The position numbers and the translations under genes are program-made. The notes beneath the pieces were generated by a model, which was given only the letters and a program-made list of their open reading frames with translations, was not told the DNA's origin and did not search any database. Shown in pieces: positions 3,228 through 14,693 of a stretch of 32,000 nt of DNA (position 1 is the stretch's first letter; every line of letters begins with the position of its first letter). The stretch comes from Pirellula staleyi DSM 6068 (lineage in GTDB: Bacteria > Planctomycetota > Planctomycetia > Pirellulales > Pirellulaceae), in contig CP001848.1 in assembly GCA_000025185.1 (NCBI GenBank), positions 2,040,001-2,072,000 of the forward strand, read 5' to 3'.

Positions 3228-5342
3228 CTATTTGATGTCGATACCTAGCAGGTACTGATCGAGAGCACTTCGCAGTTTGGTTTCTTCGTCGATCGCAGCG
3301 GTAATGAGACCACGCAGGCGCTCAATCTCGTCCTCTTGCTCGGTGAATTTCGTGATATAGCGCCGGAAGAGATCCGACTCCTTCGGGAGCTGCGCCATGT
3401 TATCGCGGATTCGCTTCTGCTCTTGATCGATGACAACCACCTGACGATCGAGTTCAGCCCGCTTCTGCACAGCCTTCTGAATCGAATCCTTGCGAGCCAC
3501 AATCTCTTGCAGCGCCTTCTTCACTTCGGCTGAAACAACCGTTGCCTGCAGGTAGATCTGCACCTGATTGTTGTTCAGGTTGTTAGCCGCAAGTTGTTCG
3601 GTAAGCTGTTGCTCCTCATGGACCACCAGCGTGGCGGCTTTTCCAGGCTCGGCCTTCACGGCAAAGCGATAAAGGTCACGCGTTTTCTCCGACGGCTCGG
3701 CAGGCTCGAGTAGCTTCCAGTTAGCTACCACGGGGTACTCGATCAGCACCGTTTTCTCACTTTTTCCGCTGTTTTTGATGACATACGACTTCTTACGTTC
3801 CAGCTTCGTGCTGACAAACAGCACCCCTTTGGCCAGACGAATGCTGACGAGCGATTGCGGCGAATTCGTAAGCGATGGTGCCACTTCGGTATCGAGATCC
3901 ATCGCATAGCTGATGAGGCGTTCGGTGCCAGGCTGCAGATCTTGAATCTGTGCATCGCCGGCATAGGCCCCATCGTCGAACACAGTGATCGGACCCTGCA
4001 TCAAGTGCAGGTCGGTCGAGTTCTTCAGACGCAGTCCACTCAGTGGATGCTTGATGTGGCTCGCTTCGTTGTAGATCGAAACTTTGGATCCCTCGACCGA
4101 GTCGTTCACGATCGGCAGCATCGCGCTGGTGCTACGCGAGAGCTTTACTGGTGTGGCGATGGCGTATCGAAACATCTCGCCGACATCCGAAGCATTGGCG
4201 ACACTTTCGAGCGAGCTCTTCAGCGTAGCCCGATCGTAACCAGAACTCGGTGAGGCAAAACCGGGGGCAGGTGGTGCTGACGGAGCTGCGGCAGCCAGAT
4301 TCTTCCGTAGTTCGCGACTGCGAGCCAAACCGTCTTGCTTGCCTGCTTCCATTTGCTCGCCGAGCATGGCGAAATCTTGTTCGGCATCTTTCAGCGACTG
4401 ATCATACGTACGTGGACGTAGCGAAGCATAAAGCTCGGGCTTTACCTCAGGACGAGCCAAATAGAGTGGCTGATAGAGGTCCATCACAAACGAGATCGGC
4501 CGACCACTCACCAGCGTGAGATTCACATCGTTCCAGTCAGCTTCGGTAGTGTTCTCGACAATCGCCCAGCCTTGCAAAAGTGGCTGCTTGTCGTTGTCGA
4601 GCACGAGTCGATAGCTGGTCTTCCAAATCGGTGCCTCTTGGATATAGCCCACGCGCACTGCACGCTTGCCAGCACCGAGGAAATTCAGCGAAACAAGCTT
4701 CTTTTCTTGGGATTTTCCTGACGCGAGGACCAGCAGCGCTTGACGCAATTCGGCATCGAGCTTGGCGTTGGTGAGTTTGATGCGTCCCACATTGTCGAGC
4801 GATACACTTCGCAAGCCTTCGTCGGTCAGAAGGGTCAGGTACGACTGCTCGATCGTATCTTCTTTGCCAACAGCGACGATTCGTTTTTCAACGCCGATGA
4901 TCGTTCCAGCAACTTTGGTAGGAGCATCGATTTCGATCGCTTCGCCACGAATCTGTCCGAGAAGATCGGCGAGCGTTGGATTGCGCGTCAGATCGATCGA
5001 GAATGTCGACAGCGTTCGTGTGATCGGGTCTTTGCTACCGTACGATACTGTCGAAATGCGTCCTCCGCCAAGATCTTCGAGCACCATGCTCTTTAGTAGA
5101 TCGTTGATGTCTTTGACATTGAACTGGAGTTCAACTGCACTGTTCCCTTCGACTTCGCCTGCATGTTCGAAGAAGGCCACACCGCTGCTGTACATCACGA
5201 CACGTTTGATCGGGAGATCGCTCAAATTGGTTTCCTCGGCATGAAGCGTGGAGACAGCGACGATCATCACGAGCGACGATGTGGCTGTTCGAATCATCAT
5301 GGCAGCGAGTCGCGTGAGACGAAAGAGTGCAAACGACTTCAT
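3228..5342 (-). CDS. Secreted hypothetical protein, DUF4139/DUF4140-like, with a C-terminal coiled coil
   Basis: GGAGG SD, ATG start and an N-terminal signal-like hydrophobic segment. The N-terminal region (VVMYSSGVAFFEHAGEVEG…) and a later GPITVFDDGAYAGDAQIQDLQPGTE resemble the DUF4140/DUF4139 family from memory. The last ~110 aa are heptad-like and rich in charged residues. The family call is tentative. Confidence 0.7.
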   Translation of the reverse strand: MKSFALFRLTRLAAMMIRTATSSLVMIVAVSTLHAEETNLSDLPIKRVVMYSSGVAFFEHAGEVEGNSAVELQFNVKDINDLLKSMVLEDLGGGRISTVSYGSKDPITRTLSTFSIDLTRNPTLADLLGQIRGEAIEIDAPTKVAGTIIGVEKRIVAVGKEDTIEQSYLTLLTDEGLRSVSLDNVGRIKLTNAKLDAELRQALLVLASGKSQEKKLVSLNFLGAGKRAVRVGYIQEAPIWKTSYRLVLDNDKQPLLQGWAIVENTTEADWNDVNLTLVSGRPISFVMDLYQPLYLARPEVKPELYASLRPRTYDQSLKDAEQDFAMLGEQMEAGKQDGLARSRELRKNLAAAAPSAPPAPGFASPSSGYDRATLKSSLESVANASDVGEMFRYAIATPVKLSRSTSAMLPIVNDSVEGSKVSIYNEASHIKHPLSGLRLKNSTDLHLMQGPITVFDDGAYAGDAQIQDLQPGTERLISYAMDLDTEVAPSLTNSPQSLVSIRLAKGVLFVSTKLERKKSYVIKNSGKSEKTVLIEYPVVANWKLLEPAEPSEKTRDLYRFAVKAEPGKAATLVVHEEQQLTEQLAANNLNNNQVQIYLQATVVSAEVKKALQEIVARKDSIQKAVQKRAELDRQVVVIDQEQKRIRDNMAQLPKESDLFRRYITKFTEQEDEIERLRGLITAAIDEETKLRSALDQYLLGIDIK

Positions 5343-5716: not shown

Positions 5717-6985
5717 CTAAACCACAGCGCTGGACGCGAGCGAGTGCCGACGATTATCGGGTTTCACCAGCACCAGCTGAACGAGCCCGAGTTGCTGTTC
5801 GCGAAAGCCACCCTCGCAGTAGCAAAGGTAGTACTCCCACATGCGCAGAAATTCGTCGCCGAGGTTCATGTCCCGCAACTTCGGCAGCACGCTGAAGAAG
5901 TTCCTTCGCCAGTCGGCTAGTGTGCGGGCATAGTGCTGCGGGGCATCTTCGAGGTGAAAGATTTTCAGATCAGTCGCGCGTCGTACTGAGGTCGCCATGC
6001 TTTCCACACTCGGCAAACAGCCACCGGGAAAGATGTACCGCTGTATGAAGTCGACACTCTTCAAGTAGTTCTGGTGCAGCTGATCGGCTAGCGTAATGCC
6101 TTGAATCAGCGCGAGACCATTGGGCTTGAGCAGCTTGCTGCAGGTTGCAAAGTACTGATCGAGGAACTCGTGTCCCACCGCTTCGATCATTTCGATACTG
6201 ACAAGCTTGTCGAAGGTCCCTTCCATCTGACGATAGTCGCGTAGCACAATCGTGACACGATCGGAGAGTCCAGCCTCGCGAACCTTTTCGGTAGCGAAAT
6301 CAAACTGCCGCTGTGAAATGGTGATGCCGGTTACACGGCACCCACAGGTCTGCGCGGCATGGATGGCAAGACCTCCCCAGCCGCAACCGATTTCGAGCAA
6401 GTGATCGGAAGCCTGGAGGTCGAGTTTTTCGCAGATACGCTGAAACTTATGCTGCTGCGCTTCTGCGAGAGAACTGTTCGCCGCAGGATAAATAGCGGAA
6501 CTATAAGCCATCGAATGATCGAGCCACGACGAAAAGAAATCATTGCCCAGATCGTAGTGCGCCGCAATGTTTCGCTTGCTTCCCGTTTCGCTATTGCCTT
6601 GACGCCAGTGCCAAAGTCGCAACAGCGGCTGCACCACAAATCCAGCTGCCGATTCCAGAGCGCTCATCGCTTTAGAGTTGCGAATCATCAGCCGAACGAC
6701 GTTCGTCAGATCGGGCGTGCTCCAGTCGCCATCCATATAGCTTTCAGCTGCGGCAATCGAGCCACCGAGTGCGATGCGGCGAAACATTCGATCGTGGTGA
6801 ACGCGAATCTCGGCGACAAGATTGTCAGCGGACTTCTCTCCGAACTGGTGCGTCGTACCGTCGAGTATGAGATGAAGTTCGCCAGCGACGAGCGTGCGTA
6901 ATTTCGCAAGCACACCTCCGCGCATGCGGGCATCGATCCACGACAGCTTTGCGGGGGAAGCTCGCTCAGGAGCGTTGCTTTTCAC
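5717..6985 (-). CDS. cfa: Cyclopropane-fatty-acyl-phospholipid synthase family SAM-dependent methyltransferase
   Basis: Hallmark CMAS motifs are present: HYDLGNDFFSSWLD, LLEIGCGWGGLAIHAA and YYLCYCEGGF. The track ORF runs to 7114, which would overlap the upstream gene by 133 nt. A GTG at 6985 forms a GTGA start/stop junction with the DUF1365 stop. The alternative ATG is at 6925. The start is uncertain. Confidence 0.88.
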   Translation of the reverse strand: MKSNAPERASPAKLSWIDARMRGGVLAKLRTLVAGELHLILDGTTHQFGEKSADNLVAEIRVHHDRMFRRIALGGSIAAAESYMDGDWSTPDLTNVVRLMIRNSKAMSALESAAGFVVQPLLRLWHWRQGNSETGSKRNIAAHYDLGNDFFSSWLDHSMAYSSAIYPAANSSLAEAQQHKFQRICEKLDLQASDHLLEIGCGWGGLAIHAAQTCGCRVTGITISQRQFDFATEKVREAGLSDRVTIVLRDYRQMEGTFDKLVSIEMIEAVGHEFLDQYFATCSKLLKPNGLALIQGITLADQLHQNYLKSVDFIQRYIFPGGCLPSVESMATSVRRATDLKIFHLEDAPQHYARTLADWRRNFFSVLPKLRDMNLGDEFLRMWEYYLCYCEGGFREQQLGLVQLVLVKPDNRRHSLASSAVV

Positions 6986-7923
6986 GCCAGGGGAGTTGGA
7001 CTTGGGATTGCCTGATTCGGTCGTGTCGCCGGGTGGGAGAACGAGGGACATTTCTTGATCCATAGTCGCAGAGCCTCGAAGTAAATCGCTGCCACCACCT
7101 TGGCAGGCATCCAAACATGTTGTCGTTCAAGCGATCGCAATCGAGCGTGAGTCAGTTCGGAGCGTCGCATTAAGAGCGTGGCATCAAACAGAGGTGAAAC
7201 GGGTCTTTTTTCTCGGGAAATATCAGTGGTTTTCAGGTTTTCATCAGAGGAATCGGTCGCAGGTCGCAGTTCACTTGGCCAGTTCGAAAGGTGTACCGTC
7301 AATTGGTCGCCCGGTGCACGAAAATGCCAACGATACTGTTGTTCCATCGGCATGAACGGCGAGACGTGAAACGCTTTCTCATGGCGAAACGAGAGTCCTC
7401 GCGCCGACCGATTTCCGTGGTGAAGCACATAGTGATGTCGCTCACGCCACGGGATGTTGTTTACCTCTGCCACAATCGCTTCCACTTCCGTGCCGGATGC
7501 ATCAAAGCAGTAGTAGAGATTGAGCGGGCTAAAGAAGTATCCGAAGTAACGCAGATGGGTGAGGAGCCGAATCGGACCCACGGGACGCTGGCCACTCTCG
7601 TGCTCGACATGATCTCGGATAAATGTGTCGACCGATGCGAAGTCGGAGTTGGTAGGTGGTGACTGAGGAGCTCGTCCCGTATGAATTGGAGGAGTTAGTT
7701 CACGCGTGTTGCTCGAGTCTTTGAGTTTGGGAAGAGGCAGATGATCGCTGGGCCAAAGAGCGCGCGACGACCAGCCTCGCTCGCAAGTGAAAAAACCTTG
7801 GCGGGCAAGTTCGGGGACTTCAGCCAGATCAAGATAGAGCAGAAAAAGTGGGTACTTAAACTGATGCTCTACAGGGCCGAAGCGGCGGTGCTGAACCCTT
7901 CCTTCGTAGAGACAACTCTGCAT
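6982..7923 (-). CDS. DUF1365 family protein
   Basis: From the ATG at 7923 the protein begins MQSCLYEGRVQHRRFGPVEHQFKYPLFLLYLDL, the typical DUF1365 N-terminus. The track ORF's extra 42 codons (to 8049) lie inside the upstream gene and are probably not translated. Confidence 0.88.
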   Translation of the reverse strand: MQSCLYEGRVQHRRFGPVEHQFKYPLFLLYLDLAEVPELARQGFFTCERGWSSRALWPSDHLPLPKLKDSSNTRELTPPIHTGRAPQSPPTNSDFASVDTFIRDHVEHESGQRPVGPIRLLTHLRYFGYFFSPLNLYYCFDASGTEVEAIVAEVNNIPWRERHHYVLHHGNRSARGLSFRHEKAFHVSPFMPMEQQYRWHFRAPGDQLTVHLSNWPSELRPATDSSDENLKTTDISREKRPVSPLFDATLLMRRSELTHARLRSLERQHVWMPAKVVAAIYFEALRLWIKKCPSFSHPATRPNQAIPSPTPLA

Positions 7924-9167
7924 GAATCGAGATCTTTTCCAAATTCTCGAGCGACTTGTAGCGCGCTCACCACACCATCCTCGTGAAAGCCATTTCTCCA
8001 ATAAGCACCGCAAAACCACGTGTTTCGCGGGCCGTTGATCGTTTTCCAAGCTGCTTGTGCGCCGAGCGATTCAGGGCCAAAGACGGGATGGCTGAACTGC
8101 AGCACCTGGATCCGTTTCGAAGGTTCGACAGAGTGCGTGAAGTTGAGCGTTGCCAAAATCGGACGAGGTGCTCGCACATTTTGCAGCCGGGTGAGATCGT
8201 AAGTCACCGCGACGTTTCCATTGCCCTCTTTGGGGGTGAGATAATTCCAACTGGCCCATGCGCGACGAGCTCGTGGCAAAATCGCGGTGTCGGTGTGAAT
8301 CACCACTTCATTAGGTTGGTAGGGAAACGCGCTCAGCAGCCGCCGCTCTTGCTGGTCGGCATCGCTGAGCATCGCCAAACTCTGATCGGCATGCGAGGCG
8401 AGCACCACATGATCAAATCGTTCGACACCCAACGGCGTGGTGAGATAAACGGAGCCCGCTTCGCGCGAGATACTAGTGACCGGCGTTGATGTCCGAACTT
8501 CAGCCAAAGGGGTGATCAGCTTCGCGATGTAGCGACGTGCGCCCCCGGGAATTGTCCGCCACACGGGACGATCAAGCACTTGCAGAAGACCGTGATTGTG
8601 AAAGAACCGCAGGATGAAAAGAGCTGGAAAATCGAGCATCTTTTCGGGCCTGGCCGACCAAATTGCGGCTCCCATCGGGATCAGATATTGGTCGATGAAT
8701 CGGCGGCTATAGCTCCGTTCGCGAACAATCTCACCGAGCGATCGATGCTCGAGTTTTTCAGGCGAGGTGAGTAGCTGCGGAGCTTCGCGGTTAAAACGAA
8801 GAATATCGGCGATCATGCAGTAGTGCGGAACACTCAGCAAGTTGTGCAGCTGTGCAAAGAGTCCACCCAGGGAGCCTTCATACTCGAGCCCTGTTCGTTC
8901 GCACTTCACCCCAAACGACATGTCGGTTGGCTGTGATTCGATCTCCAGCTTGTCGAGCAGTTTGCAGAAGTTCGGATAGGTGCGTTCGTTGAACACCATG
9001 AAGCCGGTATCGACGGGATAGTTGGTCCCATCGATATCGACGTCGAGCGTGCAGGTATGACCTCCGAGCGTTGGCGCTGATTCTAGTAACGAAACTTCGT
9101 GCTCACTTGCCAATAAGTTGGCAGCAAGAAGTCCGCTGATGCCGGAACCAACAACCGCAATTCGCAT
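7869..9167 (-). CDS. NAD(P)/FAD-dependent oxidoreductase, amine-oxidase/phytoene-desaturase-like
   Basis: N-terminal dinucleotide fold MRIAVVGSGISGLLAANLL…LLESAPTLGGH and a C-terminal FCGAYWRNGFHEDG motif. This is the usual partner of DUF1365 and CFA synthase. Confidence 0.9.
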   Translation of the reverse strand: MRIAVVGSGISGLLAANLLASEHEVSLLESAPTLGGHTCTLDVDIDGTNYPVDTGFMVFNERTYPNFCKLLDKLEIESQPTDMSFGVKCERTGLEYEGSLGGLFAQLHNLLSVPHYCMIADILRFNREAPQLLTSPEKLEHRSLGEIVRERSYSRRFIDQYLIPMGAAIWSARPEKMLDFPALFILRFFHNHGLLQVLDRPVWRTIPGGARRYIAKLITPLAEVRTSTPVTSISREAGSVYLTTPLGVERFDHVVLASHADQSLAMLSDADQQERRLLSAFPYQPNEVVIHTDTAILPRARRAWASWNYLTPKEGNGNVAVTYDLTRLQNVRAPRPILATLNFTHSVEPSKRIQVLQFSHPVFGPESLGAQAAWKTINGPRNTWFCGAYWRNGFHEDGVVSALQVAREFGKDLDSCRVVSTKEGFSTAASAL

Positions 9168-9268
9168 CCAAGGCTCGGCTTTCGTGAGGGAGGTAAGGTC
9201 AACTTAACAGGGTGTACATCAGCGGAACGAATCAATTCTCAGAATTCGCCACAACTGAAGCGAATAGT

Positions 9269-10669
9269 TCAATATCCCAGCATGTGATGCAGCGCCGTAT
9301 CGAGTGTCGTATGCCGAAATTCATAGCCCGATTGCTGAAGTTGGCTTGGCACAACACGCTGCGACGCCAGGAGCAATTCATTCGCCATTTCGCCTAGAAC
9401 AACACGCGCGACGAATCCAGGGAGTGGGAAAATCGTGGGGCGAAAGAGCACGCTACCAAGTGTCTTGGTGAAATCTCGATTCGTGATTGGCTGCGGTGAA
9501 ACGATGTTGACCGGCCCAGCCAGCGACTCGGTCATGATCACGTGATGCAGGGCTGCAGCCGCTTCGTCGAGCGATACCCAGCTCCAAAACTGCTTGCCAC
9601 TCCCGACCACTCCACCACCACCCATCTTGAAGGGAGGGAGCATCTTTGCCAGCGCTCCCCCCGTGGGACTTAGAATCACTCCGAAGCGAGCATTCACGAC
9701 ACGAATGCCAGCTTCCCGAGCCGGAGCAGTAGCCGACTCCCAGTCGCGGCACACCTCTGCCAGGAACCCGGTGCCCGCAGTGCTCTGTTCGTCCAGAAGT
9801 TCATCGCCACGATCGCCGTAAAAGCCGATCGCCGACGCACACACAAGTGTTTTCGGTTTGACACGGAGCTTCGCCAGCGATTCGCAAAGTCGCCTCGTAC
9901 CTACCGCTCGACTATCGCGAATCTTCTGCTTCACCGATGCCGACCAGCGACTTCCTCCGATATTCTCACCCGACAAATGCACCACCGTGTCGATCGGCTG
10001 ATCTGTCGGCAGGATGAGTTCGCCGCTGGCGTCGTTCCAGGTCCCGGTGAGACCATTTCCCGCTAGTTTAGCAGCGTTCTTGCCACCAGCTCGCGAGAGC
10101 TTGATGGCTTGGTGACCACCCGTGGTGAGGAGTGGAACCAGTGCTCCACCAACCATGCCACTGGCGCCAGTGACAGCAATGGTTTGACGCGGCTGCGATT
10201 GATAATGGCTGTGGTGGGCCAGGTCATCCCGTGTTTGGCGGTGACGAAACGCGAACATCCGATCGAGCTTCTTTGCTACGAAACCGGCCCCGAAGAGGGA
10301 CGACATCGGCTGCCCCGGAAGGGAGTACTCAATCCGGTCTTCGAGCGTGCAGCTATTCTCCGACGAACCGTTAAACAGATGCTGATGTTCCCACGACGCG
10401 AATGGTCCGGTCACTTGCGTATCGCAAAATTGTTTGCCCGCGATGTAATCGTGATGACGGGCAAGCCACTTCAGTTTCACGGGGCCGATGCTAGTTTCAA
10501 GAAGTGCTTCAGCGCCGTTTTCGATACCGCCTTTGCGGCTGACGAGCCGAGCCTTTTCCCAGGGTGGTAGTAAACGTTCCAGAGCTCCAGCACGCTCGTG
10601 CCACGCAAAGGCTTCAGCCGCTGATACTGGCAGCGATAACTGCCGTACGAATTTTGTTGTTGCCATCAC
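9269..10669 (-). CDS. SRPBCC domain fused to a TIGR01777-type (YfcH-like, DUF1731) NAD-dependent epimerase/oxidoreductase
   Basis: The N-terminal ~150 aa are lipid-binding START/SRPBCC-like. A Rossmann motif follows (IAVTGASGMVGGALV). The C-terminal PSQLQQSGYEFRHTTLDTAL is typical of DUF1731. GGAGG SD upstream. GTG at 10669 and ATG at 10666 are both possible starts. Confidence 0.85.
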   Translation of the reverse strand: MMATTKFVRQLSLPVSAAEAFAWHERAGALERLLPPWEKARLVSRKGGIENGAEALLETSIGPVKLKWLARHHDYIAGKQFCDTQVTGPFASWEHQHLFNGSSENSCTLEDRIEYSLPGQPMSSLFGAGFVAKKLDRMFAFRHRQTRDDLAHHSHYQSQPRQTIAVTGASGMVGGALVPLLTTGGHQAIKLSRAGGKNAAKLAGNGLTGTWNDASGELILPTDQPIDTVVHLSGENIGGSRWSASVKQKIRDSRAVGTRRLCESLAKLRVKPKTLVCASAIGFYGDRGDELLDEQSTAGTGFLAEVCRDWESATAPAREAGIRVVNARFGVILSPTGGALAKMLPPFKMGGGGVVGSGKQFWSWVSLDEAAAALHHVIMTESLAGPVNIVSPQPITNRDFTKTLGSVLFRPTIFPLPGFVARVVLGEMANELLLASQRVVPSQLQQSGYEFRHTTLDTALHHMLGY

Positions 10670-10699
10670 TAGGCCACCTCCGCGAGGCCCGGGGCGAGA

Positions 10700-10735
10700 T
10701 TGCTAAACGAGCGGAAATCGCCCGTTATTTAGCAA
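10700..10735 (-). other. Inverted repeat/hairpin directly after the sigma-factor stop codon
   Basis: TTGCTAAA (10700-10707) and TTTAGCAA (10728-10735) are perfect reverse complements around a 20-nt loop. There is no U-tract. It lies between the sigma gene stop (10737-10739) and the SD/start of the next gene (10669). Confidence 0.5.
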
Positions 10736-10736
10736 G

Positions 10737-11861
10737 TTACGCCTCTTCGACCGGTGTCAGGTCGATCTCTTCTGCCATGCTTCGTAGCTTACTGATCGCT
10801 CGCATTTCGAGTTGCCGCACACGTTCTTTGCAGACCCCAAACTCACCTGCGAGACTTTGCAATGTTTGAACTTGTTCCTTGCGATCGAGACCAAAGCGGC
10901 AGCGAATGATCGATCGCTCGCGGGGATCGAGTTTGCTGAGCATCTTGGCAAGAGCTCGTCGCAGTTCGTCGAAGCGAGCTTCGCTCATCGTACCAGGACG
11001 CTCTTCTTCTGGCGTGTCCTCGAACAGACTGGTCTCGGCATTCATGAACCGAGTGCGGTCGCGCATCAGTTGCTGCAGCGAGCGGCAAAGAGTGCGGCGA
11101 ACAGCCTGGGTGGCATAAGTGCTGAAGCGAAACCCGCGATCATAATCGAACTTCTCGACAGCTCGCAGCAGTGACGTGATCCCCTCGCTCAGCAGGTCGT
11201 CAAACGAGTTGCGAGCATCCGAAAACTTCTTAGCAATCGATACCACAAGTCGCAGATTGGCTCGCACAATACGGTTGCGATCGGCCAGTGCTTGGGCAAT
11301 CAGACGTTCGATCGAGACAATCAGTTCGCGGTCGGGATGATCGGTATTGATCTTACGGCGGAGAACATCAGCGGTGTATTTCGCGAAGTTCATCCGACGG
11401 AAGAGATCTCGTTCTTCCGTCGGGCTCAAGAGCGAGGTTTCGCACATCCGGGCCAAGTGGGCTGGCATCTCACGGCCAGGAGTCCAGTTGGAGATGGACG
11501 TGGAATCGAGAGGCATCGAACCGAGGATCTCGTGATCGATGCCGGGCTCTTTGAAGGACTCGTTATGGATGTAGTCGAGTTCGGCTGAAGCGAGTGACTT
11601 GGCAGCTGTTCGCCAGTCGCGAGTGGCCGAGGTGTCGATGCTGGCTGGACGATCGGCATAAAGTGCGGCGAGATGCTGCAGTTTCGACAGCTTGCGGCGG
11701 ACCGGTTTGACAGCTTCCTGGGATGAGATTTCCGTGTGGTTTTTAACGAGTTTGCGTTTCGCAGTCGTACTTACTTTGGCGGGTTGGGTCGGGAGTGAGT
11801 CGCGGCGAAGCGAGGTCGACTTTCGCTTGACAGTCTCGCGAATGGGGGAGGCGATGATCAT
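10737..11861 (-). CDS. Sigma-70 family RNA polymerase sigma factor (regions 2, 3 and 4) with a basic N-terminal extension
   Basis: Region 2 is NLRLVVSIAKKF…SEGITSLLRAVEKFDYDRGFRFSTYATQAVRR. Region 4 is RERSIIRCRFGL…TLQSLAGEFGVCKERVRQLEMRAISKLR. The ATG at 11861 is preceded by AAGGAGA at 6 nt. The track start at 11885 is a GTG that contains that SD. Confidence 0.85.
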   Translation of the reverse strand: MIIASPIRETVKRKSTSLRRDSLPTQPAKVSTTAKRKLVKNHTEISSQEAVKPVRRKLSKLQHLAALYADRPASIDTSATRDWRTAAKSLASAELDYIHNESFKEPGIDHEILGSMPLDSTSISNWTPGREMPAHLARMCETSLLSPTEERDLFRRMNFAKYTADVLRRKINTDHPDRELIVSIERLIAQALADRNRIVRANLRLVVSIAKKFSDARNSFDDLLSEGITSLLRAVEKFDYDRGFRFSTYATQAVRRTLCRSLQQLMRDRTRFMNAETSLFEDTPEEERPGTMSEARFDELRRALAKMLSKLDPRERSIIRCRFGLDRKEQVQTLQSLAGEFGVCKERVRQLEMRAISKLRSMAEEIDLTPVEEA

Positions 11862-11951
11862 CGAAACTCTCCTTGGCGGATCCACTTTCAGCTATGCGAG
11901 CCTTGTCGGACGAATTGTCCGAACGATCGGCGGCGACGACTGGCTGAATTA

Positions 11952-12172
11952 AAATCGTTCAAATCGTTCACCGAGGATAATACCGATAAACAGGTGCGGA
12001 GGCAACGTGCAAACGTTCAAATCGCTCAAAACGTCCATGCAGAAAACGCGAAAGGTTGTTGATACAAATGACCTTACCTCTGCATGAATTCTGCAAAAAC
12101 GTTTTTTCTGCGCTAGAAATAAATCGATCCAAGCGCTACAGTGTCCAGTAGACAAATCGTTCAGACCGTTCA
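11952..12172. repeat. Array of 9-10 nt direct repeats (consensus AAATCGTTCA) in the AT-rich divergent intergenic region
   Basis: Exact copies at 11952-11961, 11961-11970 and 12154-12163. Degenerate copies at 12011-12019 (AAACGTTCA), 12019-12028 (AAATCGCTCA), 12028-12037 (AAAACGTCCA), 12121-12130 (AAATCGATCC) and 12164-12172 (GACCGTTCA). They form three tandem clusters (2+3+2) with ~9-10 nt period, plus one isolated degenerate copy at 12121-12130. Confidence 0.8.
11977..12005 (-). promoter_or_regulatory. Candidate sigma-70-type promoter for the sigma-factor gene (TTGCCT-N17-TATTAT on the minus strand)
   Basis: Reverse complement of 12000-12005 is TTGCCT and of 11977-11982 is TATTAT, with a 17-nt spacer. 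It lies ~115 nt upstream of the ATG at 11861 and is flanked on both sides by the AAATCGTTCA-type repeats. The call comes from pattern matching only. Confidence 0.3.
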
Positions 12173-12265
12173 TCGACGGTCTGCTTTTTCCAGGTGTCAA
12201 ATACCTGAAGTATCGATTGGCGTCGTGTTCGTATCGTTTGAGCGTCTCTTCCGAGTGAGCTACCC

Positions 12266-13207
12266 ATGCACGAGCTTTTAACGCCACGACAAGTGGCCCG
12301 TGCGATTGGCGTCAGTGAATCGTCACTCAAACGCTGGTGCGACCGGGGAATGATCCCCATGGTTTGCACCGCTGGCGGACACCGAAGACTCCCTATTAGT
12401 GGGGTTCTTGAGTTCATTCGGGCTCAGCGTCACACGCTTATTCATCCCGAATCGATTGGGCTCCCAAGGGATACCGGTCAGCGTCGGTTGGGGCTCCATG
12501 CGGCTCGTACGCTCCTCGAGCAATCGCTTATCGATGGCGACGAAAATCAAAGTCGCCAAATCATTCTGGATCTTTACCTGGATAACCACCAAATCGCGAT
12601 TCTGTGCGATCAAGTGATTGCTCCTACGTTTCACGCGATTGGCCATCGCTGGCAATGCGGTGAACTGGAGGTCTATCGCGAGCGTCGTGCCTGTCGTATT
12701 TGCATTCGTGTGCTGAGTGAAATCCGATCGCTCATGGCGACCCCTCGCCCCGAAGGGCCTCTCGCTCTCGGTGCCACGCCAGGAGGAGACAACTACGAAG
12801 TGCCAACGGCAATGGTGGAACTCGTTCTGAGGCAAAATGGTTGGAATGCCACTTCGCTCGGATCATCGCTACCCATCGACACGCTCGCTGTAGCCATTGC
12901 CGAGAACAGCCCATCGCTCTTTTGGCTGAGTGTGTCGCATCTAGCTAATCCACGAGAATTCATGGCCGAACTTCCGAAGCTTCTGGCCGCCGCCGGAGAT
13001 CGAACAAGTTTGGTGCTAGGTGGACGTGGCATCACGCACGAAATTCGCGAGCAACTCACCGGTGTTCTGTTCTGCGATTCGATGAGGCAACTTGAGGAAC
13101 TCACGAAGCCGATTTTCGATCGACAGTCGAAAACTTCTGAACTTCCCAAGGTGGTGCAGGACCAGCCTCTCCAGCCAGGTCAGCCCGGTTCAGTCAAGCT
13201 CGGCTGA
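12266..13207 (+). CDS. Transcriptional regulator: MerR/excisionase-type HTH + B12-binding cap + B12-binding Rossmann-like domain (CarH/LitR architecture, degenerate ligand motif)
   Basis: N-terminal HTH is LTPRQVARAIGVSESSLKRWCDRGMIP. Cap-like helical bundle has IGHRWQCGELEVYRERRA. The fingerprint D-N-Y-E-V-P -(41)- S-V-S -(27)- G-G matches the spacing of DxHxxG-(41)-SxL-(26-28)-GG, but with His to Tyr and Gly to Pro. Confidence 0.8.
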   Translation: MHELLTPRQVARAIGVSESSLKRWCDRGMIPMVCTAGGHRRLPISGVLEFIRAQRHTLIHPESIGLPRDTGQRRLGLHAARTLLEQSLIDGDENQSRQIILDLYLDNHQIAILCDQVIAPTFHAIGHRWQCGELEVYRERRACRICIRVLSEIRSLMATPRPEGPLALGATPGGDNYEVPTAMVELVLRQNGWNATSLGSSLPIDTLAVAIAENSPSLFWLSVSHLANPREFMAELPKLLAAAGDRTSLVLGGRGITHEIREQLTGVLFCDSMRQLEELTKPIFDRQSKTSELPKVVQDQPLQPGQPGSVKLG

Positions 13208-13346: not shown

Positions 13347-14693
13347 ATGCCAGCCCTCAGCCATTTTGCACCGACCCGTTTTTCATGGCCACTTTCATGG
13401 GTCGGTTGGCTGTTGCACGCGGTTGTTGCCGCACTTGCCCTCTCGGCTGCTGTCGGCGATGAACCCCCAACTGCAGCGACTCCTGTAGCGACACGCACCT
13501 GGACCCAGTGGCGTGGTCCTTCGCGGAGCAGTGTGGTGGAGGGGCAAACGTGGCCCGACACCCTGACAGAAAAGAATCTGCAGCAGCGCTTTCGGATTCC
13601 TCTGGGGCCGAGCTATAGCGGACCGATTGTCACCGAGGATCGCGTTTTTGTGACTGAAACGGTCGACGCCTCGAAGGAGGTGGTCCGCGCACTTTCTCGA
13701 ACCGATGGGAGCGAACTTTGGCGAGTGGAGTGGAAAGGGGCGATCATCGTTCCGTTCTTCGCGATGAGCAACGGAAGCTGGATTCGTGCCACTCCAGCCT
13801 TCGACGGAACCACCCTCTATGTCGCTGGGATGCGCGATCTGCTCGTGGCGCTTGAAGCCAGCAGCGGTAAAGAGCTGTGGCGGCTCGATTTCGTGAAGGA
13901 GCTGAAGTCGCCCGTCCCTAGTTTTGGTTTTGTCTCCTCGCCACTCATAGTGGGCGAACATCTGTACGTGCAAGCGGGAAGCGGATTTTGCAAGGTCGAG
14001 AAAGGGACAGGCAAGCTGGTTTGGCGAACGCTTGTCGACGACGGCGGCATGATGGGGAGCGCTTTCAGCTCGCCAGTGCTGGCCAGCATCGCCGGCCAAG
14101 AGCAGATGCTGGTGCAAACTCGCACCAAACTGTGCGGTGTCGAACTTACCGCAGGGAAAGAACTCTGGTCCCTCGAAATCCCTGCTTTTCGTGGCATGAA
14201 CATCCTGACACCGACCGTGATCGGCAATTCGATTTTCACGAGCAGCTACGGTGGCAAAAGTTTGCTGATTGAGGTCGCTCGCGACGGAGAGAAGTGGACC
14301 ACCACCGAGCGCTGGAACACCAAACAGCAGGGCTACATGTCATCCCCGGTGGTGATCGATGGTCAAATCTACCTGCATTTGCGAAACCAGCGATTTACCT
14401 GCCTCAGTGTGGCGGATGGTGCCGAAGCCTTCACCACCAAGCCATACGGCAAATACTGGAGCATGATTGCGAGCGATAAGCGCATGCTCGCGCTCGACGA
14501 ACAGGGAGATCTCTTACTGATTCACGCAACTCCCGAGAAGTTCGACCTCATCGCTTCCCGGAAAATCTCGGACGATGAGACCTGGGCACATCTGGCCATT
14601 GCTCCCTCGACCGACTCCACCAAGCCCGGCGCTTATGACCTATTCATTCGCGAGCTCGAAGCCCTCACCCTCTACACATGGTCCCCTGAGTAG
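13347..14693 (+). CDS. PQQ-like beta-propeller repeat protein (BamB/quinoprotein-fold), secreted
   Basis: Signal-like N-terminus, WTQWRGPSRSS motif, and repeated 'V(F/Y)V…G…(L)VALEASSGKELWR'-type blades. This is typical of planctomycete PQQ-propeller proteins. Confidence 0.85.
   Translation: MPALSHFAPTRFSWPLSWVGWLLHAVVAALALSAAVGDEPPTAATPVATRTWTQWRGPSRSSVVEGQTWPDTLTEKNLQQRFRIPLGPSYSGPIVTEDRVFVTETVDASKEVVRALSRTDGSELWRVEWKGAIIVPFFAMSNGSWIRATPAFDGTTLYVAGMRDLLVALEASSGKELWRLDFVKELKSPVPSFGFVSSPLIVGEHLYVQAGSGFCKVEKGTGKLVWRTLVDDGGMMGSAFSSPVLASIAGQEQMLVQTRTKLCGVELTAGKELWSLEIPAFRGMNILTPTVIGNSIFTSSYGGKSLLIEVARDGEKWTTTERWNTKQQGYMSSPVVIDGQIYLHLRNQRFTCLSVADGAEAFTTKPYGKYWSMIASDKRMLALDEQGDLLLIHATPEKFDLIASRKISDDETWAHLAIAPSTDSTKPGAYDLFIRELEALTLYTWSPE

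Follow-up and report, generated by a model that had tools for sequence, protein, structure and literature searches.

Within a 32,000-nt stretch of the Pirellula staleyi DSM 6068 genome (contig CP001848.1, positions 2,040,001 to 2,072,000; hereafter the window, with positions counted from its first letter), five genes follow one another on the minus strand, and a regulatory gene is read away from them across an intergenic spacer. The first of the five encodes a sigma factor and the next a fusion of an SRPBCC domain with a short-chain dehydrogenase/reductase (SDR), followed by an amine-oxidase-like protein that uses flavin adenine dinucleotide (FAD), a DUF1365 protein and a member of the cyclopropane fatty acid (CFA) synthase family. 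The strands and coordinates of all six open reading frames (ORFs) were verified against the sequence, and the recomputed junctions are gaps of 67 nt and 101 nt, then a 55-nt overlap and a GTGA start/stop overlap, as reported in a preliminary description of this DNA (Table 1). Searches with hidden Markov models confirmed the families CMAS, DUF1365, Amino_oxidase, TIGR01777, B12-binding_2 and Sigma70_r2/r4 named there, with B12-binding remaining below threshold. The start codons are ATG 11861, which follows an AAGGAG Shine-Dalgarno sequence, GTG 10669, ATG 9167, ATG 7923 and GTG 6985; for the CFA gene, upstream ATGs are alternatives to GTG 6985, as the same ORF extends to 7114. The sigma product read from ATG 11861 is 100 % identical to the annotated P. 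staleyi DSM 6068 protein ('RpoH'), which fixes this start codon. Looked up by exact sequence, the window regulator had no entry on record, and the sigma factor led to nothing more than a 3-kb Logan contig.

Table 1. Genes and predicted control elements of the locus (positions within the window).
Feature	Position	Strand	Basis
CFA-synthase-family S-adenosylmethionine (SAM) methyltransferase, UfaM-type candidate	5717-6985	-	PF02353, 286 bits; start codon uncertain
DUF1365 protein, UfaO-type candidate	6982-7923	-	PF07103, 234 bits, full profile covered
FAD amine-oxidase-family protein, UfaD-type candidate	7869-9167	-	PF01593, 85 bits, and NAD_binding_8
SRPBCC (Polyketide_cyc) domain fused to TIGR01777/DUF1731 NAD-dependent epimerase-type SDR	9269-10669	-	Pfam and NCBIfam
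Sigma factor, 374 aa	10737-11861	-	Sigma70_r2 and r4
Operator site A, AAATCGTTCAAATCGTTCA, two perfect 9-nt units	11952-11970	+	Position weight matrix (PWM), 35.1 bits
Predicted sigma-70-type promoter of the sigma operon	12005-11977	-	Promoter scan
Operator site B, three 9-nt units, CAAACGTTC AAATCGCTC AAAACGTCC A	12010-12037	+	Overlapping PWM matches, 23.7 and 23.3 bits
Operator site C, AAATCGTTCAGACCGTTCA, in the regulator leader	12154-12172	+	PWM, 24.7 bits
Regulator, 313 aa	12266-13207	+	HTH_17, B12-binding_2 and sub-threshold B12-binding
PQQ_2/BamB-like beta-propeller protein, hydrophobic N terminus	13347-14693	+	PF13360, 149 bits

The gene neighbourhood is conserved. A profile of the regulator (alignment A1) retrieved 80 loci from reference genomes, all of them Planctomycetota and including Pirellulales, Gimesia and other Planctomycetales, Thermoguttaceae, Lacipirellula, Adhaeretor, Mariniblastus and Anatilimnocola, and 42 of these loci have full 10-kb flanks. 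Neighbours were counted by tblastn with the window proteins, and an unbiased clustering in which all ORFs were included added others. In 27/42 full-flank loci and in 44/80 of all loci (55-64 %) the regulator has the sigma gene as its divergent neighbour, the triad of amine oxidase, DUF1365 and CFA genes lies within 10 kb in 18/42 and 29/80 (36-43 %), and at least one recurrent module gene is present in 36/42 and 66/80, whereas the window's unrelated flanking genes, which served as control, appear in 0/80. Read from the other side, all five sigma-anchored loci (L165-L168 and L085) have the regulator next door; the co-occurrence of the sigma-regulator pair with the enzyme genes, which the preliminary description had left to a neighbourhood survey, thus holds in both directions. 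L165-L168 carry sigma homologs of 47-53 % identity from different genera, in 4/4 of which the regulator is divergently adjacent and an SRPBCC-Epimerase-DUF1731 fusion directly follows the sigma gene. Such a fusion also stands directly downstream of the sigma gene in L033, L022, L027 and L049, and no other gene accompanies the sigma gene so constantly. The metagenome contig L085, the sole informative locus among the sigma-side metagenome matches listed, which were mostly generic sigma-70 genes, carries the entire module. From these arrangements the conserved core is the divergent regulator-sigma pair with the SRPBCC-TIGR01777 gene behind the sigma gene, and the lipid triad appears appended or nearby.

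Further genes recur around the regulator: DUF1295 directly after the CFA gene in 17 loci, fasciclin in 18, a class II cyclobutane pyrimidine dimer (CPD) photolyase in 11 (adjacent in five; PDB 8oet/2xry, E 1e-74), a DCC1-like thiol-disulfide oxidoreductase in 10, and also an SDR with DUF2867, a stand-alone SRPBCC protein and a SpoIIE phosphatase. The recurrent neighbours of the regulator loci hold no anti-sigma-like gene, and a ChrR-type gene is found neither in the window region nor among them, the only cupin being a 128-aa Cupin_2 protein in Gimesia synteny. Variation between lineages was also seen. Several loci of Gimesia and other Planctomycetales (L008, L016, L019, L021, L024, L079, L080) follow the triad, in many cases, with a second CFA paralog and DUF1295, and loci of this kind have the DCC1-like gene between the amine oxidase and sigma genes; the P. 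staleyi window has none of the three. A conserved membrane protein of about 293 aa (cluster c38, motif GFRWWE.D) precedes the amine oxidase gene in L028, L037 and L040. Two regulator-sigma pairs (L034 and L049), one of them continued by an SRPBCC-SDR fusion, lie on a single contig of a metagenome-assembled genome (JACKHM010000001.1), indicating that the module can be duplicated within one planctomycetal genome.

The regulator joins an N-terminal HTH_17/MerR-like winged helix (SESSLKRWCD...GGHRR) to a four-helix bundle and a Rossmann 'cobalamin-binding' domain of the CarH/CtMerR type. HTH_17 scores 33.6 bits (cutoff 27) and B12-binding_2 32 bits (cutoff 23); in the DNA-binding domain (DBD) MerR PF00376 stays below its cutoff. 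The family profile matches CtMerR (PDB 8JBS) at E 8e-44 over residues 4-269 of 8jbs_A, DBD included, and CarH at E 6e-7. In an AlphaFold2 model of the regulator (pLDDT 91) the cobalamin-binding domain (CBD) superimposes on 8jbs_B with a root-mean-square deviation of 2.0 A and a TM score of 0.86, and Foldseek finds full-length CarH 5c8d at E 2e-14 and CarH CBDs at TM 0.75-0.80. The layout of winged helix, four-helix bundle and Rossmann domain is therefore that of CarH and class I LitR, and in this the preliminary description of a CarH/LitR-like regulator was right. It does not extend to the motifs: a tryptophan followed at a fixed distance by Glu-His (Wx9EH) and the lower axial histidine are defining for CarH-type function (PMC8156234; PMC11796333), whereas the window protein has W129-x9-E139-R140 in place of Wx9EH and D175-N-Y177-E-V-P180 in place of E/DxHxxG, and reaches 51 bits against the cutoff of 400 with the NCBIfam CarH model. 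CtMerR, which binds adenosylcobalamin (AdoCbl) and responds to light, has the signature GxxW / EH / GxxH / GxxxP with His204 as lower ligand (PMC11796333). Measured against the SignatureFinder definition of a light-responsive CBD, the window regulator has GxxW (G126, W129) and GxxxP (G199, P203) and fails two of the four elements, EH being ER and GxxH being GxxY. Nor is it a class II LitR, as its Rossmann subdomain is conserved and LOV genes are absent from the recurrent neighbours. Judged by full-length homology, including the SESS.KRW.D / GGHRR DBD, and by the defining motifs, the regulator is a member of the CtMerR-like HTH_17-CBD family and not a CarH or LitR protein. Because the ER/DxYxxP combination is invariant in its clade and coupled to gained cysteines, 'photoreceptor-like' describes the fold of this protein rather than demonstrated light sensing.

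A search seeded with CtMerR divides the relatives by the residues at the two signature histidine positions into H/H proteins (35, from Acidobacteriota, Ignavibacteria and others), R/Y proteins, R/F proteins (e.g. of Polyangiaceae) and a few H/Y proteins. H/H members adjoin a polyprenyl synthase gene (L081, L082) or head a complete carotenoid operon (L083), and an R/F member of Polyangiaceae (L084, GCA_046351415.1) adjoins TIGR01777, SRPBCC, SDR, fasciclin and glutathione peroxidase genes, the SRPBCC and TIGR01777 domains being separate genes there. By this gene content the regulator family is tied to photoprotection genes. The same L084 locus also encodes a canonical MerR plus B12-binding CarH-like regulator next to an amine-oxidase/phytoene-desaturase-type gene, so that both sensor types coexist in one genome. 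In the planctomycetal clade conserved cysteines are found at positions 25 (195/197), 114 (152/197), 131 (191/197), 143 (194/197) and 270 (184/197), and Cys25, Cys143 and Cys270 are present in 20/20, 20/20 and 18/20 of the R/Y and R/F proteins as against 0/35 of the H/H proteins. Cys25 lies in the DBD (KRWCD) and Cys143 next to E139-R140 (ERRAC). The gain of cysteine at positions 25, 143 and 270 thus co-varies with the loss of the two signature histidines across phyla. The pocket residues G126, W129, E139, D175, G199, P203, S222, G252 and G253 are invariant in the family. Cys131 and Cys143 flank the W-x9-E-R helix segment, which in CarH and CtMerR caps the upper face of the cofactor. This R/Y(F)-plus-cysteine clade comprises more than 2,000 sequence clusters, mainly of Planctomycetota with relatives in Myxococcota.

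The spacer between the sigma and regulator genes measures 404 nt and has a GC content of 47.5 % as against 57 % for the window, which places it in the lowest 0.3 % of 404-nt windows. The short direct repeats noted earlier in this AT-rich region of about 400 bp were borne out: an 18-mer of two 9-nt units has four matches at up to three mismatches where 0.03 would be expected, all of them in the spacer and on one strand. The motif consists of tandem AAA[AT]CGTTC units, AAA[AT]CGTTCAAA[AT]CGTTCA, and is conserved in orthologous spacers, CGTTCAAA occurring in 30/41 of them against 0.5 expected. When a PWM of this operator was run over 2.65 Mb it gave 168 matches, more than 80 % of which directly precede the regulator gene, no matter whether the divergent partner is sigma, fasciclin, amine oxidase, SpoIIE or DCC1, and 153/153 matches within 800 nt upstream of a regulator lie on the regulator's coding strand. 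They fall into three positional classes relative to the regulator start, site A at about -230, site B at about -170 and site C at about -35, with a start-to-start spacing from A to B of 55-60 nt in 36 locus pairs and of 56-60 nt in 35; the mode is 58, which is also the spacing in the window. Where the sigma gene is missing (L044, L047, L054, L055) the operator directly precedes an amine oxidase-DUF1365-CFA operon, and in L070 it precedes an SRPBCC-photolyase operon. The tandem motif is also found just upstream of the regulator gene and on its strand in L081-L084 (23.9-30.4 bits). The genes so preceded include that of CtMerR itself, and in Ignavibacteria the motif stands at the start of the carotenoid operon. 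Its presence upstream of both His-type and R/F-type members indicates that DNA recognition is common to the CtMerR-like family, which lends further weight to the operator assignment and yields a prediction for CtMerR, whose operator was described by the authors of its study only as an 'alternative DNA-binding site' (PMC11796333).

The operators are placed in a fixed relation to a promoter. Between sites B and A a sigma-70-type promoter is predicted for the sigma operon, with TTGCCT (12005-12000), a 17-nt spacer and TATTAT (11982-11977), and TTGCC.-17-TA.AA. recurs there in the same register in 35/37 orthologous loci; a generic promoter scan found the window copy independently. Upstream, site B directly adjoins the -35 box. 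Site A, whose distance from the promoter is constant in 35/37 loci, follows closely on the -10 box when read along the sigma strand and would cover roughly positions +1 to +20 of the predicted sigma transcript. The Shine-Dalgarno sequence and ATG of the sigma gene follow site A after 15-30 nt in most other loci and after about 90 nt in the window. In most loci a sigma-70-like promoter comes first, then site C, and about 35 nt further on the regulator ATG; the window copy of site C stands 112 nt ahead of that codon, which amounts to about 78 extra nt between site and start, and a weaker related pair of units is found near it at 12121-12138. The arrangement is the one expected of a repressor that would occlude a housekeeping promoter from two flanking sites and regulate its own gene, and it parallels that of CarH and CarA, which use tandem direct repeats to repress sigma-A promoters (PMC8156234).

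Two features of the leaders deserve mention. A terminator-like hairpin at 12162-12183 (+), with a 9-bp stem followed by CTTTTTCC, overlaps site C in the regulator leader, and in L003 a GC hairpin likewise comes after site C; the leader hairpin may be an attenuator coupled to operator occupancy. The predicted 5' untranslated region of the sigma mRNA contains site A in antisense and that of the regulator contains site C in sense, so that the divergent transcripts would carry mutually complementary segments of about 19 nt next to their ribosome-binding sites, and cross-talk between the two RNAs is a purely speculative thought. An Rfam scan of the window and the spacer returned no cobalamin riboswitch and no other RNA family.

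The sigma factor has regions 1.2, 2 and 4 and lacks region 3: Pfam recognises r2 and r4 and no Sigma70_r3, and in the alignment to SigA (8h3v_G) the SigA numbering passes from 228 to 287 over a few residues of the sigma factor, so that some 60 residues of region 3 have no counterpart. In region 2 the protein comes near the primary and stationary-phase sigma factors, and regions 1.2 and 2 align best with SigA, SigB, RpoD and RpoS. Extracytoplasmic function (ECF, group 4) sigma factors consist of sigma2 and sigma4 domains alone, with ECF-type sequence, and usually come with a cognate anti-sigma factor. The window protein is not one of them, since it matches the r2 and r4 models rather than r4_2 and only the generic superfamily model TIGR02937 exceeds its cutoff; without region 3 it is not a primary-like (group 1-3) sigma-70 either. 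The preliminary description, which had contrasted a full-length sigma-70 with an ECF sigma, was therefore correct in excluding the latter and not in calling the protein full-length. The annotation 'RpoH' was rejected as the RpoH models score far below their cutoffs. The N terminus is a variable basic extension rich in Lys, Arg, Ser and Thr, longest in P. staleyi (alignment A2), and ahead of region 1.2, at residues ~100-160, the same alignment reveals a family-specific segment, E-I-D-F-I-P-N-x-x-F ... LPAHLxRLCE, which in the window reads AELDYIHNESF ... MPAHLARMCE. This conserved segment could be a docking site for a regulator or an anti-sigma factor.

The three enzymes at the end of the operon belong to the families of a defined pathway. 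In Rhodobacter sphaeroides and Rhodopseudomonas palustris the furan fatty acid (FuFA) 9M5-FuFA is made from vaccenate chains by UfaM, a CFA-like SAM methylase, UfaD, an FAD enzyme that serves as fatty-acyl desaturase (RSP1091/RPA2571), and UfaO, a DUF1365 protein for the O2-dependent closure of the furan ring (RSP1090/RPA2570), and the ufa genes are induced by singlet oxygen through sigmaE-ChrR (PMC7380195), in line with the background that the preliminary description gave on the amine-oxidase/DUF1365/CFA set. The lipids that mark the pathway are 11Me-12t-18:1, 11Me-10t,12t-18:2 and 9M5-FuFA. In the window PF01593, PF07103 and PF02353 are all above their cutoffs and encoded together, in the order of R. 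palustris ufaD-ufaO-ufaM, and the CFA-like protein remains below the equivalog cutoff for true CFA synthases (287 bits against 400). At the level of family and synteny, the triad can be regarded as UfaD/UfaO/UfaM-type candidates. The SRPBCC-SDR protein combines Polyketide_cyc, Epimerase and DUF1731 and scores 302 bits with TIGR01777 (cutoff 207).

The promoter and terminator scan revealed no terminator-like site in the gaps between the five operon genes. As the promoter is of the housekeeping type, the gaps are short and no terminator-like site intervenes, the enzymes would probably be transcribed by derepression alone, without the new sigma factor. The 67-nt gap between the sigma and SRPBCC-SDR genes (10670-10736, -) contains a 14-bp hairpin, UUGCUAA...UUAGCAA around GGGCG/CGCUC without a U-tract, that folds at -27.5 kcal/mol (z = -2.0). 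It is not conserved, the matching gaps in L165-L168 being 12-25 nt or overlapping, and was excluded from the module on this ground; if it affects read-through or mRNA stability, it would do so in P. staleyi only. Downstream of the CFA gene, at a distance of 374 nt, a 704-aa protein with a weak sub-threshold DUF4139 match and a long C-terminal coiled-coil-like region is encoded at 3228-5342 (-). As this gene recurs in 0/80 regulator loci, the operon most likely ends at 5717. On the other side, the PQQ_2/BamB-like gene starts 139 nt downstream of the regulator, and the same arrangement in 25/80 regulator loci and in L168 suggests that its product is an accessory member of the module, possibly located in the envelope.

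The sequences compared here show to which families the genes belong, that their linkage is conserved, where the operator sites lie relative to one another and to a conserved promoter, and how the sensor pocket has changed, and on these features we base a model in which a repressor-to-sigma cascade serves photo-oxidative membrane protection, held with somewhat more confidence than doubt. The HTH_17/CarH-fold regulator would bind the tandem AAA[AT]CGTTC repeats at sites A, B and C, an oligomer on B and A, 58 nt apart, would shut the bracketed housekeeping sigma-70-type promoter of the sigma gene, and binding to site C in the regulator's own leader would provide autoregulation. Upon the inducing signal, most likely light or a product of photo-oxidative stress, the repressor would leave the DNA and the five-gene operon would be read from the housekeeping promoter, yielding the sigma factor, the SRPBCC-SDR protein and the UfaD/UfaO/UfaM-type enzymes. 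These enzymes are predicted to turn vaccenate chains of membrane phospholipids into methylated and then furan fatty acids that scavenge singlet oxygen, and the sigma factor presumably extends or amplifies the response to unlinked genes, e.g. photolyase. That the module responds to light or singlet oxygen is suggested through guilt by association. We infer the repression, the inducing signal, the co-transcription, the sigma regulon and the lipid product. The earlier idea of a dedicated sigma factor and a photoreceptor-like repressor arranged around a lipid-modification pathway is upheld in outline by the comparative evidence, with a different type of sigma factor and with a regulator that is photoreceptor-like in its fold.

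Several observations weigh against this model. Both signature histidines are replaced, by R140 and Y177, in 197/197 family members sampled, and the sister group has Phe at position 177, which makes CarH-type AdoCbl photochemistry doubtful; for a control protein in which Arg occupies the His177 position the authors predicted no light response (PMC11796333). The recurrent neighbours in the 80 loci include no gene for a photoreceptor partner of the LOV or BLUF kind and no CarS-like gene. On the side of the sigma factor, a specific promoter was not found, as k-mer enrichment in 90 upstream regions of module genes gave only the reverse-complemented operator, and visual inspection of the regions upstream of the amine oxidase and SRPBCC genes likewise revealed no shared element. 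The strong hairpin in the 67-nt gap could limit read-through from the sigma gene into the enzymes. Finally, the in-operon CFA-like gene of R. sphaeroides is dispensable for furan fatty acids (PMC7380195), so that the product in P. staleyi could differ.

What the regulator senses can be explained in several ways. It is conceivable, though in our view rather unlikely, that the same circuit is run by a sensor that is thiol-based or otherwise independent of photolysis and that detects photo-oxidative or redox stress (singlet oxygen, peroxide or lipid aldehydes), in which the CarH/CtMerR fold is re-used without AdoCbl photochemistry and oxidation or adduct formation at cysteine would release DNA. 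The co-variation of histidine loss with cysteine gain at positions 25, 143 and 270 speaks for it, as do the DCC1-like thiol-disulfide oxidoreductase among the neighbours and the glutathione peroxidase in L084, and in Vibrio a MerR-like regulator together with ChrR-sigmaE responds to blue light and to light-generated reactive oxygen species (ROS) (PMC5241685); the rest of the cobalamin pocket is nonetheless invariant, which argues that a corrinoid-like ligand is still bound, and the cysteines may be structural or metal-binding. That same invariance, of GxxW, the Glu of the EH pair, D175, GxxxP, Ser and GG, favours a regulator that binds cobalamin without a protein histidine ligand, Tyr or Phe packing under the corrin, and that acts as a light sensor with altered photochemistry or as a sensor of B12 availability. 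Among solved structures, that of the AdoCbl photoreceptor CtMerR is the closest, His-type relatives head carotenoid/isoprenoid genes behind the same operator, mixed H/Y intermediates exist and photolyase genes are linked. Yet it is the lower axial His and the His of EH that define CarH-type function (PMC8156234; PMC11796333), the B12-binding Pfam score of 26.4 bits is below the 32.1 cutoff, and Phe at 177 in the sister proteins cannot ligate cobalt, which also argues that the aromatic residue at the ligand position is not a metal ligand; for this reason Tyr177 as a replacement cobalt ligand was judged unlikely. We give this cobalamin-based explanation, too, a low probability. A signal-blind repressor, relieved by a photoreceptor or antirepressor encoded elsewhere, has precedents in Myxococcus xanthus CarA, which lacks Wx9EH, needs no B12 for repression and is relieved by CarS (PMC8156234), and in class II LitR, which is relieved by a short LOV protein (PMC9758184). 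Here we consider it decidedly improbable, since no gene of the LOV, BLUF or CarS-like kind recurs near the regulator and so strict a conservation of the pocket is not expected of a ligand-free scaffold.

The linkage could also be regulatory and the pathway not that of FuFA, the products being cyclopropane or mid-chain methyl fatty acids or another lipid, made in response to general envelope stress and not to light. The CFA-like protein scores almost equally against CFA-synthase models (NF008686 288 bits, cutoff 400), the corresponding R. sphaeroides paralog is dispensable, and no role has been assigned to the SRPBCC-SDR, DUF1295 and fasciclin partners; against these stand the amine-oxidase, DUF1365 and CFA-like genes in the very order of the experimentally defined FuFA set of R. 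palustris (PMC7380195) and the co-localised photolyase, which points to light, and we regard this alternative as improbable. Returning to the repressor-to-sigma cascade, its sensor may tentatively be placed, with less confidence than the cascade itself, in a new class formed by the R/Y(F)-plus-cysteine clade, which would keep the fold, pocket and DNA code of CarH/CtMerR, would have exchanged AdoCbl-His photochemistry for something else and would command a hitherto unrecognised sigma factor family without region 3. Its mechanism could rest on cysteines that respond to singlet oxygen or to the redox state, on a tetrapyrrole or corrinoid with different ligation, or on a metal or Fe-S centre.

No report of this module in Planctomycetes was found in the searchable literature, in keeping with the preliminary description. 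The module provides a testable regulatory model for light and photo-oxidative stress in Planctomycetota, among which surface-exposed aquatic species abound and few regulators have been characterised, and does so in a cultured type strain, P. staleyi DSM 6068. The clade of the regulator represents a large natural 'experiment', in which the signature histidines were replaced, cysteines gained and the pocket kept, that could reveal new sensing on the CarH scaffold or delimit the light-response signature, and the predicted operator of the CtMerR family may be useful to optogenetics in mining B12 photoreceptors. The study also defines a sigma factor family, by regions 1.2, 2 and 4 and the N-terminal motif, whose members are misannotated as RpoH, RpoD or SigA, and it predicts furan or methylated fatty acids in Planctomycetes.

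CtMerR of Chloracidobacterium thermophilum (8JBS/8JBT; Yu et al. 2024, PMC11796333) shares with the window regulator the two-part architecture, the DBD, the CBD fold, GxxW, GxxxP and the operator motif, and differs from it in having E-H and G-x-x-H and no Cys at positions 25/143/270; its gene adjoins polyprenyl synthase, with neither sigma nor ufa genes. CarH or class I LitR (Thermus thermophilus, M. xanthus, Bacillus megaterium) and CarA have the same layout of winged helix, four helices and Rossmann domain, and their tandem direct-repeat operators overlap a sigma-A-type promoter and serve to repress photoprotective genes (PMC8156234). Whereas CarH operators are 3-4 contiguous 11-bp repeats, the window has pairs of 9-nt units at three separated sites, and unlike CarH its DBD is of the HTH_17 type and both defining motifs fail.

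In Streptomyces, an AdoB12-dependent LitR controls an ECF sigma factor that drives the crt genes. The order of events in the LitR-LitS system resembles our proposal, a light-responsive MerR-type repressor acting on a dedicated sigma factor and this on photoprotection genes (PMC11519972); in the window, by contrast, the sigma factor is not ECF but similar in regions 1.2, 2 and 4 to group 1-3 sigma factors, the predicted output is lipid modification or photolyase rather than carotenoids, and the regulator is without His ligands. In Pseudomonas the class II LitR proteins (PplR/PmlR) with a short LOV protein govern an equivalent set, phrB, SDR, FAD oxidoreductase, ufaM and hypothetical genes, phrB and the three enzyme genes being light-induced under this pair (PMC9758184). 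The Pseudomonas precedent invoked in the preliminary description is thus sound for the light-inducible set and not for a dedicated sigma factor, the paper describing sigma-70 promoters and a LOV partner instead. The targets have sigma-70 promoters and the regulator cannot use canonical B12 chemistry, as we propose here (PMC9758184). Class II LitR nevertheless consists of the four-helix bundle only, whereas the window regulator keeps both subdomains with a conserved pocket, and it relies on a TGTACA-type inverted operator and an adjacent LOV partner without a dedicated sigma factor (PMC9758184), no LOV partner being found at the window.

The sigmaE-ChrR system of R. sphaeroides, and of Vibrio cholerae where a MerR-like protein takes part, likewise entrusts ufa-type genes and photolyase to a dedicated sigma factor that answers to light-generated ROS (PMC7380195; PMC5241685). 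Control is post-translational there, by the adjacently encoded anti-sigma factor ChrR, made up of a zinc ASD and a cupin, on an ECF sigma, whereas the sigma gene of the window would be under a transcriptional repressor; with a sigma factor that is not ECF and no ChrR-type gene the locus is not a sigmaE-ChrR regulon. The Ufa loci themselves (R. palustris RPA2571-2569; R. sphaeroides RSP1091-1090 and RSP2144) have the same three families in the same order, and DUF1295 and SDR are frequent accessory genes in related loci, unlike the window, which has the SRPBCC-TIGR01777 fusion and is without DUF1295. The logic of the circuit is therefore already known from LitR-LitS, sigmaE-ChrR and class II LitR, and what is new is the histidine-less, cysteine-gaining sensor clade, the operator of 9-nt direct repeats at three sites that bracket a conserved promoter, and the sigma factor family without region 3.

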